From positions 1 to 24,102 of the forward strand of contig DSBX01000201.1 in assembly GCA_011049385.1 (NCBI GenBank): DNA of 24,102 nt, in the 5' to 3' direction. Of this stretch, positions 11,596-14,894 are shown piece by piece. Within the stretch, counting starts at the first letter, position 1, and each line of letters opens with the position of its first letter. A program made the position numbers and the translations under genes. The notes beneath the pieces were generated by a model. The model made no database searches, had not been told where the DNA came from, and saw nothing but the letters and a program-made list of their open reading frames with translations. Source of the DNA: a candidate division WOR-3 bacterium (lineage in GTDB: Bacteria > Hydrothermota > Tepidihabitantia > Tepidihabitantales > Tepidihabitantaceae).

Positions 11596-12192
11596 ATGTC
11601 CGGTCGGGCAATGGCCCGACTGCTCGCCTGTCTGCTCGTCGGCCTGGCCTGCCTGCCGGTCCGGAGCCGTTCGACCGCGCCCGCGGTCAACTCCGAACTG
11701 GTGGTCCGGAAGTTCGCCGAAGGCTTCGGCAGCGGTACCGGGCGGTTGACCCGTCTGTTCCTGAATGATGCTGAGGTTCGCCTGGCCGGGTTGGGTGTGG
11801 GGTTCAGGGGACGCCGCGAAATCGAGCGCCTGCTGGACTACGCCCGGGCCGCAGAGGCCCGGCTCGAGCTGTCCGCGCTGGAGCGGCGGGGCGACACCGT
11901 GTTCTGCCGGTTGGCCGAGGACAACGCCTGGCTCCGGGCCCTGGGCGCGGACAGCCTGCGCTACTCGGCCCGGTTCCTGTTCCAGGGCGGCCGGGTTGCA
12001 GAGGCCGAAATCCGACTCCTGCCCGGCTCCCGGGCCGCGCTCGGCCGGAGCGGGATGGCTTTCGCGCTCTGGGTACGTGACCACGCACCGGGGGCCATCG
12101 AGCGCATCCTGCCCGGTGGACGGCCCGAATTCTCCCGGGACAGCGTCCGCCAGCTGTTGGAGCTCATTCGGCGCTGGCAGACCGAGCGTTGA
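11596..12192 (+). CDS. Exported hypothetical protein, NTF2/SnoaL-like fold suspected
   Basis: Signal-like N-terminus; LFLNDAEV...FRGRREIERLL...GDTVFC...FQGGRVAE pattern. Confidence 0.6.
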   Translation: MSGRAMARLLACLLVGLACLPVRSRSTAPAVNSELVVRKFAEGFGSGTGRLTRLFLNDAEVRLAGLGVGFRGRREIERLLDYARAAEARLELSALERRGDTVFCRLAEDNAWLRALGADSLRYSARFLFQGGRVAEAEIRLLPGSRAALGRSGMAFALWVRDHAPGAIERILPGGRPEFSRDSVRQLLELIRRWQTER

Positions 12193-12230
12193 GGGCGCAT
12201 CCTTTGTCCCGCTCTCTGCGTCTCACTCTA

Positions 12231-12414
12231 TGAGCGTGCGGAAGGCAAGACTCAAAGCCGGGCCCGGACCGCACTGACCAAAGGTCTCACGGTAAGGGTC
12301 CGAAGCGGCAGTACGGACTGCCGATGGCGGTACGCGCTATTCAGGGACTCTGGGATTATGGAGGTGTTCGGTCCGCTGAGACGGAACGAAGCTGCACCAC
12401 CTCCTTCCCGGTTC
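12231..12414 (+). ncRNA. Unassigned structured RNA candidate (6S-sized sRNA or cis-regulatory element)
   Basis: Non-coding gap with several stems (12306-12323; 12360-12366/12398-12404; 12265-12271/12369-12375; 12240-12245/12403-12408) ending at an intrinsic terminator. Family not recognised. Confidence 0.45.
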
Positions 12415-12444
12415 AGGGCGGGGTAACACCCCGCCCTTTTCTTT
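12415..12444 (+). terminator. Rho-independent terminator
   Basis: AGGGCGGGG-TAACA-CCCCGCCCT followed by TTTCTTT. Confidence 0.88.
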
Positions 12445-12456
12445 GTCCGGGTTCGG

Positions 12457-12484
12457 TTGACAAGCGTTGCGGGCGGCGTACGAT
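12457..12484 (+). promoter_or_regulatory. Promoter TTGACA-N16-TACGAT for the DegV-DAK2 gene
   Basis: Perfect -35, plausible -10; AGAGGA SD before ATG 12507/12510. Confidence 0.65.
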
Positions 12485-12506
12485 GGCGACAAGAGGATGT
12501 ACCGCA

Positions 12507-14894
12507 ATGATGGCAGCGCCGCATAGCGAAACCGGGCGGCCGGTCCGGATCGTAGTGGACGGCACCACCAATACCGACCCGGCCACGCGCCGGCGGTTGG
12601 GCATTGCGATCATCCCGATCCACATTTCAGGTCTGCCCGGGGAGGTGGCGTCCCGCCTTGCGGCCGGCGGGCACGAAGCGCTCTATGACCACCTCGACCG
12701 CCCGCACCGGCCCGAGGAGCAATGCGGCACCCGGGCCGGCAGTGTCTGGGAGGCGCGGCAGGTCTTTGAGGACCTCATCCGCTGGGAAGACTGCGATATC
12801 ATCTGTCTCGTTGCCTGCGGTCGGTTGTCGGCAGTTTACGATAACGCTTCCCGGGCCGCGCGCGAGCTGTCCGGCCGGTATGAGAATCGAATCGTCGTGC
12901 TCGGCGAGCAGGCCTTTCTTGCGCTGGAACTGCTGGGCGAGGCTGCGGCAGCATACGCGGCGGCCGGGCACGGGTTCGAGGAGGTGCTGGCGTTCATCGA
13001 GGACAAGCAGGACCGGGCGTTCATGACCGGCAGTATCGTTGACCTCGCCCGCCTGCGCCGCTCGGGTCGGGTGGCGATACCCCGGACACTTACCCTTGTC
13101 GCCCGGCCCTTTCTTCGGCTGTTCGGGTTGGTGCCAACCTTCATCCTCGAAGAGGGGCGGCCGCGCACGACTGCGCTCATCCGCAAGCGCCGGCTTGCTT
13201 GCCACGCGCTCGATACCACGTCCGAACGGGTCGGGTTTCACGAGCCGGTCATTGCCCGGGTCGCCTACAGCGGTAGTGGCGTGCGCGCTGAAGCCGAGAA
13301 GCTGCGGGATGCTGTGGTGGAGAGCCCGGAACTCAGGTTGGCCGAACCGGTGGCAATCGAGCGGGTGAGCCCGGTCGTCGGGGTGCACGCCGGGTCCAGC
13401 CTGGTTGCTTTCGCGGCGCTTGGGCTGGGCTACGATTTGCTTTCGACGCCGGTGCTGGTCCGAATCCTGCAGGCGGCGCAGGCGGAACTGCAGAACTTCC
13501 GGCGGATGCTCAACGCCATCAACGTTTTCCCGGTGCGCGATGGCGATACCGGCTCGAACCTGCTCTCGCCGCTGACGGGCGTTGACACGGAGATTGCCGA
13601 AGACCTGCCTTTTCCGGAAGCGCTGGACCGCGTCGCGTCACTGGTTGCCCGGCGGGGCGGCGGCTACTCGGGCGGGGCACTGGCCGCCTACCTGCTCGGG
13701 GTGGCGGCCCACGTCCGGGCTCACGAGTCCGGGCCGGAACTAGGTCTTGAAACCCTGGTCGGTGCGCTGGCCCGGGGCACGGACCGCGCCTACGAGTACT
13801 TCGGCGAAGACGCGAAGGAAGGGACGATTCTAAGCGTGATGCGGGCCTGCGACCGCGCCGCGGCCGAGGCGTTCAGGACCAGGCCTACCCTGCGCCACGT
13901 GCTGGGCCATGCCTGGCTGGCCGCGACCGACGAGCTTCTGAGCCCGGCGGTCCAGCCGGTTGAGATTCTGCGCCGCGAGCACCTTGCCCACGCGGGCGGG
14001 GTCGGTTTCGCGTTGCTGTTCTGGGCCGCGCTTGACACGCTCGGGCTGAGCCGGGATAGCCGTTTGCGCGAGCGACGACGGCTGGTCCTGTACGAGGTCC
14101 GGCGGCATGCGGAACTCGGCGGCAGGCTCGTCTACCGCCGCCAACCCGCGGGACTGCGCGGCTACTGCGTCGAAGCCAGCGTGCGCGGAGACGTGGCCCG
14201 TGAGCTGAGAGCCGAGTTCGGGACCCTCGATAATCGCTTGGCGGAGCCGAAGCTGACCTTCAATTTCGCCGACGGGGTGACTCACTTCCACTTCCACGTC
14301 TCGCCCGGTCTCGAAGCCGAAGTCTTGCGGATAGCGGCCCGCCACGGGTTTGCCGAACAGCCCAGGCCGCCGACCCGACTCGACAAGCGCCGGCGCGAAA
14401 TCGTCGGCTTCCGGCTCCTCGGTATCCTGAAGCGCATCGCCGGCCACATCGTGTCCTTCTCTGTCAACTGGGTCGCCTATGCCCTGCTCTTCCCGATAAT
14501 GCGTTACCGTGCTTACCGGCGCCTGAAGGCGCTGGAGACGAAAATCGAACACCTCGCGCTCAGCCGGCTTGGCCTCGCGGCCCTGGCCGACACGACCCCC
14601 CGGGCCTGCCTGCTGTTGGATGCGCAGGGAAACGTGACTTTCGCCAACGCGTCGGCCGGGCGTCCGGTCGCCACGGATGCGGGTGTGATCGAGGATTACC
14701 TGCCCCGGGAAGAGGCCCGGGTTCTGCGATTCCGACTGTCCGAAGCGGATGGTCGGCAGGCGGCATTCAGCTTCAACGTCGGGGACCGGGTGATGACGGT
14801 CCAGCCGCTCGGTGACAACCATCGGGCCGGCGGCTTCCTGGTCCTGATCGACCGCGCGGGCACGGCGTCGGTCCGCGCCCGGGTCGATGACTGA
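12507..14894 (+). CDS. DegV(FakB)-DAK2(FakA N+M)-TM-PAS fusion protein (~795 aa)
   Basis: DegV-like RIVVDGTT, RLSAVY, LRRSGRV, VGVHAG. DAK2 LNAINVFPVRDGDTGSNL, EGTILSV. FakA-M GYCVE...HFHFH. One hydrophobic helix, then PAS-like LLLDAQGNVTFANASA. Confidence 0.85.
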   Translation: MMAAPHSETGRPVRIVVDGTTNTDPATRRRLGIAIIPIHISGLPGEVASRLAAGGHEALYDHLDRPHRPEEQCGTRAGSVWEARQVFEDLIRWEDCDIICLVACGRLSAVYDNASRAARELSGRYENRIVVLGEQAFLALELLGEAAAAYAAAGHGFEEVLAFIEDKQDRAFMTGSIVDLARLRRSGRVAIPRTLTLVARPFLRLFGLVPTFILEEGRPRTTALIRKRRLACHALDTTSERVGFHEPVIARVAYSGSGVRAEAEKLRDAVVESPELRLAEPVAIERVSPVVGVHAGSSLVAFAALGLGYDLLSTPVLVRILQAAQAELQNFRRMLNAINVFPVRDGDTGSNLLSPLTGVDTEIAEDLPFPEALDRVASLVARRGGGYSGGALAAYLLGVAAHVRAHESGPELGLETLVGALARGTDRAYEYFGEDAKEGTILSVMRACDRAAAEAFRTRPTLRHVLGHAWLAATDELLSPAVQPVEILRREHLAHAGGVGFALLFWAALDTLGLSRDSRLRERRRLVLYEVRRHAELGGRLVYRRQPAGLRGYCVEASVRGDVARELRAEFGTLDNRLAEPKLTFNFADGVTHFHFHVSPGLEAEVLRIAARHGFAEQPRPPTRLDKRRREIVGFRLLGILKRIAGHIVSFSVNWVAYALLFPIMRYRAYRRLKALETKIEHLALSRLGLAALADTTPRACLLLDAQGNVTFANASAGRPVATDAGVIEDYLPREEARVLRFRLSEADGRQAAFSFNVGDRVMTVQPLGDNHRAGGFLVLIDRAGTASVRARVDD

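Follow-up and report, generated by a model that had tools for sequence, protein, structure and literature searches.

A noncoding region between a redox gene cluster and a DegV-Dak2 gene

The window analyzed here is a 24,102-nucleotide stretch of DNA comprising one contig (C1) of the metagenome-assembled genome of a candidate division WOR-3 bacterium (G000; 2.02 Mb in 377 contigs, 67% G+C, 83% complete). A 198-aa open reading frame with no Pfam match (11596-12192, stop codon 12190-12192) is the last gene of a cluster encoding NifS, NifU, glutaredoxin, ferredoxin-thioredoxin reductase and a thiamine-BP. Downstream lies a fatty-acid-kinase-like gene in which DegV and Dak2 domains are fused (12507-14894). 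The region between the two genes had been described in an initial annotation as an unrecognised structured noncoding RNA, and this description holds: the RNA folds better than shuffled sequences, contains no open reading frame conserved between the two clades in which it occurs, and matches no Rfam family.

We compared the locus with the sister species in the same genus (G004), the other genomes of the genus (G001-G003), and several metagenomic contigs: a JGI contig (L029), an ENA contig that is the closest relative with a different sequence (L030), and four Logan contigs of the G004 type (L045-L048). The genomes compared are incomplete metagenome-assembled genomes, so an RNA missing from the hits is reported as not found rather than as absent.

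The DegV-Dak2 genes of relatives begin at the position matching ATG 12507, which we take as the start of the gene. An open frame (translation table 11) from ATG 12324 continues in frame into this gene; because relatives start DegV-Dak2 at the position of 12507, the longer frame is, on these comparative grounds, an artefact of high GC content. A sigma-70-like promoter on the + strand (TTGACA-16-TACGAT, 12457-12484, 10 of 12 matches) serves DegV-Dak2 and lies outside the RNA. It was the sole consensus promoter site in our scan, with approximately zero expected from shuffles, and it is kept in L030, where only the first -10 base differs. The strong terminator and the separate promoter for the next gene that had been reported earlier are both confirmed (12415-12437 and 12457-12484), with 62 nt from the end of the terminator to the DegV-Dak2 ATG.

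Searches of the four other genomes of the genus (G001-G004) found no DegV-Dak2 fusion gene; several other genera of the family have one, at about 50% identity, 3' of an FG-GAP/T9SS-tail gene. Since the gene is missing from the hits in the former and differently placed in the latter, the order of genes downstream of the RNA is lineage-specific. The start region of the gene also differs in L030: at L030:980-1145 (window 12507-12560), and likewise in a contig from sediment DNA run X1, one nucleotide is lacking at 12520 and three at 12490. In L030 the conserved RPVRI motif is not in the reading frame of the ATGAT start, and the gene is called from a much later position; an alternative start, a frameshift or a misassembly could explain this.

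Module architecture of the RNA

The minimum free energy on the + strand is -120.2 kcal/mol (z = -4.2), a value as good as which was obtained in 0 of 200 shuffles; the - strand gives z = -3.5. The fold of the RNA itself scores z = -4.2 and -4.3 in the window and z = -2.7 in the G004 copy. We assign the RNA to the + strand because five G-U pairs in its four hairpins (H1-H4) would be A-C on the - strand, and because the T-run is present on the + strand only. The motifs from which the initial annotation had built its model are all present (12306-12323, 12265/12369, 12240/12403 and 12360/12398), and the predicted fold is a series of hairpins ending in a terminator.

Three blocks on the + strand (12197-12234), GCATCC-YTTG at 12197-12206, GCGTC at 12218-12222 and TGAG at 12231-12234, are free of indels in all three sequence types and mark a candidate promoter region and RNA start. 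The purine-rich 5' tail (12230-12258, with a putative 5' end), carrying GGAAGG at 12240-12245, is predicted to be mostly unpaired; the equivalent tail of G004 is 25 nt long and carries AAGGAAGG. Hairpin H1 (12259-12302) consists of an outer stem CGGGCCC/GGGUCCG (P 0.94-1.0) and a variable distal part. Its counterpart in G004, CGGAACC/GGUUCCG, differs by one compensatory change and one replacement of G-U by A-U. The junction AAG (12303-12305), within a conserved UCCG-AAG-CGGC, leads to H2 (12306-12323), the perfect 7-bp stem with a tetraloop (CGGCAGT-ACGG-ACTGCCG) that had been recognised from the outset and is predicted with P 0.9-1.0. In G004, H2 reads CGGCGGA-GACA-UCCGUCG, with two compensatory pairs and one change from G-C to G-U. 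Module folding and the partition function place H3 at 12324-12339 as a 5-6 bp stem with a 5-nt loop, and G004 has a 5-bp hairpin in the same place (AGAGC/GUUCU) after almost complete sequence turnover.

The long hairpin H4 (12345-12414, P ~0.77) is made up of an outer GGAC/GUUC, a middle UGGGA/UCCCG and an inner GGAGGUG/CACCUCC helix, the last pairing an SD-like with an anti-SD-like strand, and a clade-specific distal hairpin. The inner helix had been proposed as a mutually exclusive alternative; it is predicted to form (P ~0.77), but as part of the dominant fold. In G004 the inner stem is GGAGGAAGCG/CGCCUUCUCC (P 0.86-0.99), the distal part is 13 nt shorter, and H4 as a whole differs from that of the window by two compensatory changes, four one-sided changes and one A-C mismatch. 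The RNA ends at an intrinsic terminator (12415-12446) with a 10-bp stem (8 G-C), an AAC loop and a U-tract, whose 23-nt hairpin (12415-12437) is identical in L029, L030 and G004. Across the sequence types, module lengths are 25-29 nt for the tail, 37-44 for H1, 18 for H2, 16-19 for H3 and 57-70 for H4, and every module folds alone in all three types.

Homologs and distribution

A BLAST search against 40 relatives gave a sole match, a 43-nt stretch in G004 on a different contig, and the G004 element proved to be collinear with the window copy. The two have in common the GCATCC-YTTG, GCGTC and TGAG blocks, the GGAAGG purine-rich tail, the UCCG-AAG-CGGC junction, the 7-bp/tetraloop hairpin, CAGGG, UGGAGG, and an identical 31-nt CCCGGUUCA-terminator block. 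When the terminator is left out, their semi-global alignment has z = 4.5, a score reached in 0 of 300 dinucleotide shuffles, and the best local segment is not significant alone (z = 1.8).

The contig L029 carries an identical RNA. L030 has the RNA at the same locus (203 bits with covariance model R1), following a gene whose protein is 90% identical to the 198-aa protein of the window, and the arrangement of operon and RNA is kept in both contigs. The RNA of G004 lies between a divergent TRL-like lipoprotein gene and a DUF7507/CARDB (DUF11/CARDB) surface-repeat gene that begins ~200 nt downstream of it, a setting shared by the four Logan contigs. In G004 the next gene after the ortholog of the 198-aa gene (68% identity) is a PASTA kinase gene ~100 nt on, and the RNA does not occur there; G004 is among the genomes in which DegV-Dak2 was not found. 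Because G004 has the RNA at an unrelated locus, the ortholog without the RNA, and no DegV-Dak2 gene among the hits, we consider the RNA to be tied to neither neighbouring gene.

Covariance models R1 and R2 gave no convincing RNA in G001-G003, in 44 genomes of the family or in 151 genomes of the phylum, and a more permissive run on 40 relatives returned weak, terminator-driven matches only. The best extra match (G021, 26.7 bits) was rejected, as it falls on an 86-aa open reading frame with a similar terminator behind it. Of two JGI metagenome pattern scans, the first yielded 0 matches and the second 21, none of them upheld by the covariance model, and a synteny search (upstream of DegV-Dak2, downstream of the 198-aa gene, and beside TRL neighbours) recovered the RNA only in L029, L030 and G004-type contigs. 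Two sediment DNA runs (X1 and X2) contained the L030 variant only. The RNA has so far been seen in two species groups of an uncultured WOR-3 genus and, since it was not found in G001-G003, would be either dispensable or very young.

Other genera of the family have very similar terminator hairpins (GGGC-R-GGG, a 4-nt loop, CCC-Y-GCCC) at loci unrelated to this one (L071:873-900 in G021, and in G006, G023 and G005), so terminator similarity alone is weak evidence of homology in this group. Several further observations concern the G004-type locus. The four Logan contigs, assembled independently, all break off 117-190 nt beyond the terminator, immediately ahead of the DUF7507/CARDB gene. The repeat-gene ORF of G004 starts inside a repeat unit, and the spacer holds a direct repeat, GTGTTACCCATGT x2 (L002:1300-1500). 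An 8-bp G+C-rich hairpin or palindrome on the RNA strand, CGAACGGC ... GCCGTTCG (L002:1725-1755), has no U-tract and sits between the TRL promoter and the conserved blocks upstream of the RNA.

Compensatory changes and purifying selection

In the model-guided alignment A6, 91.4% of cells are paired, compared with 41-56% after sliding the partners by 1-3 columns, and eight pairs are altered on both sides, compared with 0-3 in the slid controls; these figures come from an alignment in which H1 and H3 of G004 are offset by one column, which re-alignment with R2 did not mend. We also compared the helices by hand. Of 35 positions, 19 are unchanged, six have one-sided compatible changes, nine are changed on both sides and one is broken, with the register of H3 assumed from position and the structure derived from the same sequences. 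The two independent lineages are too few for covariation to reach statistical significance.

The closest relative with a different sequence gives a second view of constraint. The window and L030 are identical at 109 of 112 positions in H2-H4 and at 132 of 135 (98%) when the terminator is included, compared with 78% of the 4-fold sites of the 198-aa gene (n = 120), which served as a neutral proxy (P = 4e-11). Identity is 78% in the spacer before the RNA, 88% in the tail and H1, making H1 less constrained than the remainder, and ~91% in the promoter region past the terminator. By this comparison the 3' two-thirds of the RNA is under strong purifying selection. In H2-H4 the loops are constrained along with the stems, a pattern that suggests a sequence-specific partner.

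A 10-bp DNA palindrome at 12258-12267, CCGGGCCCGG, reads CAGGGCCCTG in L030, a double change that keeps the symmetry. It would fit a mini-hairpin of 3 bp or else a site bound by a protein, and the change in L030 weakens the outer pair of H1.

Promoter, ends and coding potential

A sigma-70 scan found no site before the RNA in any copy and no consistent -10 element. Upstream conservation between the two loci consists solely of GCATCC-YTTG, N11, GCGTC, N8 and TGAG at fixed spacing. As there is no recognisable conserved promoter, the 5' end of the RNA at ~12230 is only inferred. The G004 copy follows a divergently transcribed gene, and the independent locus therefore implies that the RNA would have its own promoter there. 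Two candidate promoters within the blocks were rejected: an ECF-like GCATCC-N16-CGTC is not enriched genome-wide (22 matches, rank 11 of 120 permuted motifs), and a sigma-54-like GG-N10-GC has intact spacing in G004 only, as judged by eye.

Three possible coding frames were likewise rejected (15 codons from ATG 12230, 22 codons from ATG 12357, and the long frame from ATG 12324), none of which is found in G004. Across this region G004 and the window differ by indels of 13, 5, 4 and 2 nt, and L030 shortens the ATG 12230 frame to 12 codons.

Relationship to known RNA families and RNA-binding proteins

At the gathering thresholds of Rfam 15 nothing in the window matched at the RNA, the sole match being a tRNA elsewhere, which agrees with the earlier failure to place the RNA in a family. 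With E-values up to 10 there were sub-threshold matches only, to mmgR (RF00519; 18.3 bits, cut-off 41) and SorY (18.2 bits, cut-off 111), and these fall exactly on the CCUCC tract and terminator at the 3' end. No aptamer family of Rfam 15 matched at gathering or E-value thresholds.

The long-range helices CGGACCG/CGGUCCG and GGAAGG/CCUUCC had been combined into a ~183-nt rod, and 6S RNA had been offered as one identity for it. Neither helix is favoured. The first has a pair probability of 0.000 in the partition function and costs ~10 kcal/mol to force, as does enforcing both together, and in L030 the substitution G12266T turns one of its pairs into U-C and breaks the helix. The second, which engages the 5' tail, has P 0.005 in the window and 0.003 in G004, in both cases 3 kcal/mol above the minimum free energy. 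The idea that the RNA switches between functional alternative folds fares little better, for the tail pairing is possible in both clades but with P no higher than 0.005. All predicted folds include the terminator, and neither of the two competing pairings touches its stem. The 6S model RF00013 (threshold 46.4 bits) has no match in 12100-12560 at E up to 10. Its sole match in a genome-wide scan of G000 is a canonical 6S RNA elsewhere (C195:534-716, + strand, locus L012, 61.9 bits), and one copy each was found in G004 (67.3 bits), G001 (52.8 bits) and G003 (39 bits, below the cut-off). Within the genus, 6S RNA is thus found in G000, G004, G001 and G003, and the candidate RNA in G000 and G004 only. 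The RNA belongs to no Rfam family, is not the 6S RNA of this organism and encodes no conserved peptide.

A search for CsrA (PF02599), with positive controls, found none above the cut-off in G000, G004 or 39 relatives, and a search for Hfq found none in G000, G004, G001 or G003; the RNA is apparently independent of both. Each copy holds seven GGA motifs, some of them A-N-GGA near hairpin loops, compared with 4.3-4.9 in shuffles (P = 0.12-0.19).

The anti-SD-like segment

The initial annotation had noted a match to the anti-SD tail of 16S rRNA. The identity is real: CACCUCCUU in the RNA is the tail of the 16S rRNA of G000 itself (contig C23), which ends ...GCGGCUGGAUCACCUCCUUUCU, and the RNA strand GCUGCACCACCUCCUUCC agrees with it at 15 of 18-19 terminal positions (GCUG.A.CACCUCCUU.C). 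Three features speak against a function: the 9-mer occurs in 15 copies in the genome, equal to chance expectation, the strand is paired in H4, and CCUUCUCC takes its place in G004. To judge from the two clades, the conserved feature is the H4 helix and not the anti-SD identity.

As a built-in copy of an SD:anti-SD duplex, H4 could make the RNA a decoy for the 16S 3' end, a reading that we regard as very improbable. If it were true, the RNA might soak up a factor whose target for recognition or cleavage is the anti-SD tail or the SD:anti-SD helix, and an opened H4 might compete with ribosomes for SD sequences and so act as a global brake on translation. The weak mimicry in the sister species and the chance frequency of the 9-mer would both speak against it.

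Interpretation and competing explanations

We interpret 12230-12445 (+ strand, 5' end inferred) as a free-standing, lineage-restricted sRNA of ~215 nt composed of a tail, four hairpins (H1-H4) and a Rho-independent terminator, and give this reading a probability of roughly 55%. Among the three identities proposed initially (6S RNA, a novel trans-acting sRNA or a new cis-regulatory element), a novel trans-acting sRNA appears to be the best fit: its structure, its own terminator and the lack of an Rfam family are borne out, and it probably acts in trans. The conserved blocks, which come directly after the 198-aa gene's stop codon, would contain its promoter, and read-through from the upstream operon would also be possible in G000. 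The RNA would then act in trans, with H2-H4 contacting a specific partner, either a protein or RNAs, and the most plausible mechanism would be base-pairing regulation without Hfq. The best candidate for a seed, although a doubtful one, is the pyrimidine-rich CCUCCUUCCC strand, which lies beside the terminator and could pair with purine tracts of the SD type; this step is weak because the strand is sequestered in H4 and loosely conserved.

The same features could belong to a 3'-UTR element of the upstream redox/Fe-S operon, either a structured transcript end or a processed sRNA, with no promoter of its own. There is no terminator between the 198-aa ORF and the RNA, the sole strong one being at 12415-12437, no sigma-70 promoter precedes the RNA, and L029 and L030 keep the order of operon and RNA. 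In G004, however, the operon ends ~100 nt before a kinase gene without the RNA, the RNA copy follows a divergent gene and would need a promoter of its own, and both loci keep the blocks ahead of the RNA; together these points make a 3'-UTR element unlikely. We consider it just as unlikely that there is no RNA function at all and that the region holds DNA-level signals or a young duplicated or translocated fragment, its folding being a by-product of G+C-rich palindromes. The very narrow distribution, the ~91% conservation of the promoter region past the terminator, the palindrome at 12258-12267 that stays symmetric in L030 as a protein site would, and the good folding of the - strand (z = -3.5) are all in keeping with such an origin. 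Yet the four hairpins are in the same places and still pair at a different locus, where nine double and six single compatible changes stand against one break, the G-U pairs are strand-specific, and 135 nt at 98% identity is long for operators.

A cis-acting leader of DegV-Dak2, in which the terminator is the expression platform and GGAAGG and GGAGG compete for CCUUCC as a switch, would have typical geometry (62 nt from terminator to ATG) and two near-isoenergetic pairings of the pyrimidine strand, 3 kcal/mol apart in both clades. Against this riboswitch-like proposal, a conserved sigma-70-like promoter stands between the terminator and DegV-Dak2, the terminator stem lies outside both alternative pairings, and no Rfam riboswitch matches. 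The downstream gene also differs, being DegV-Dak2 in G000 and L030 and the unrelated DUF7507/CARDB repeat-protein gene in G004, and the DegV-Dak2 orthologs of other genera lack a leader of this kind, so that we judge a cis element to be improbable. A CsrB/RsmZ-type sponge acting through the repeated GGA motifs is disfavoured more strongly still and has only a slight chance of being correct: the motifs, seven per copy and some A-N-GGA near loops, do not exceed their number in shuffles, and CsrA was not found in G000, G004 or 39 relatives. As for 6S RNA or a second, 6S-like polymerase-binding rod, the size (~180-215 nt) and the long-range complementarities are what drew attention to it; the lack of an RF00013 match, the one canonical 6S RNA elsewhere in each of G000, G004, G001 and G003, the rod helix probabilities of 0.000-0.005, the disruptive G12266T in L030 and the multi-hairpin form of the conserved fold effectively refute it.

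The free-standing sRNA would most likely be a previously uncatalogued member of the general class of bacterial sRNAs that acts in trans. To our knowledge no regulatory RNAs have been described in candidate division WOR-3, and a full-text literature search for 'WOR-3' together with 'non-coding RNA' gave no results. The locus supplies one concrete and well-delimited candidate for this group, with ~215 nt, five modules and signs of purifying selection, and a false lead is removed in that the organism's 6S RNA lies elsewhere. With the RNA restricted to a few species, its wider significance is limited and will be modest unless a partner or target is found.

Comparison with known systems

The RNA resembles 6S RNA (RF00013) in its length, its noncoding nature and the terminator that follows, and differs from it in architecture: it is a multi-hairpin molecule with free ends, whereas 6S RNA is a rod with paired ends and a large central bubble.

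In layout the RNA is like trans-encoded sRNAs that carry an anti-SD (CCUCC-type) motif beside a Rho-independent terminator, such as the alpha-proteobacterial NfeR1 (alpha-r14) and MmgR (RF00519). These too are stand-alone genes of 150-220 nt that form a number of hairpins and have a pyrimidine-rich CCUCCU tract immediately before a strong terminator. They come from another phylum and are not homologous to the RNA in sequence or structure, and Hfq was not found here. In alpha-r14 sRNAs the aSD motif CCUCCUCCC is ultraconserved and lies in unpaired loops (PMC10746234). In the RNA described here, unlike those of the alpha-r14 and alpha-r8 families, the motif is paired in H4 (P ~0.77) and is CCUUCUCC in the sister species.

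Enterobacteria have 3'-UTR-derived sRNAs, such as CpxQ, DapZ and SroC. Like them, the RNA of G000 directly follows an operon and shares the operon terminator; unlike them, it has a counterpart in the sister species that is a separate gene at another locus.
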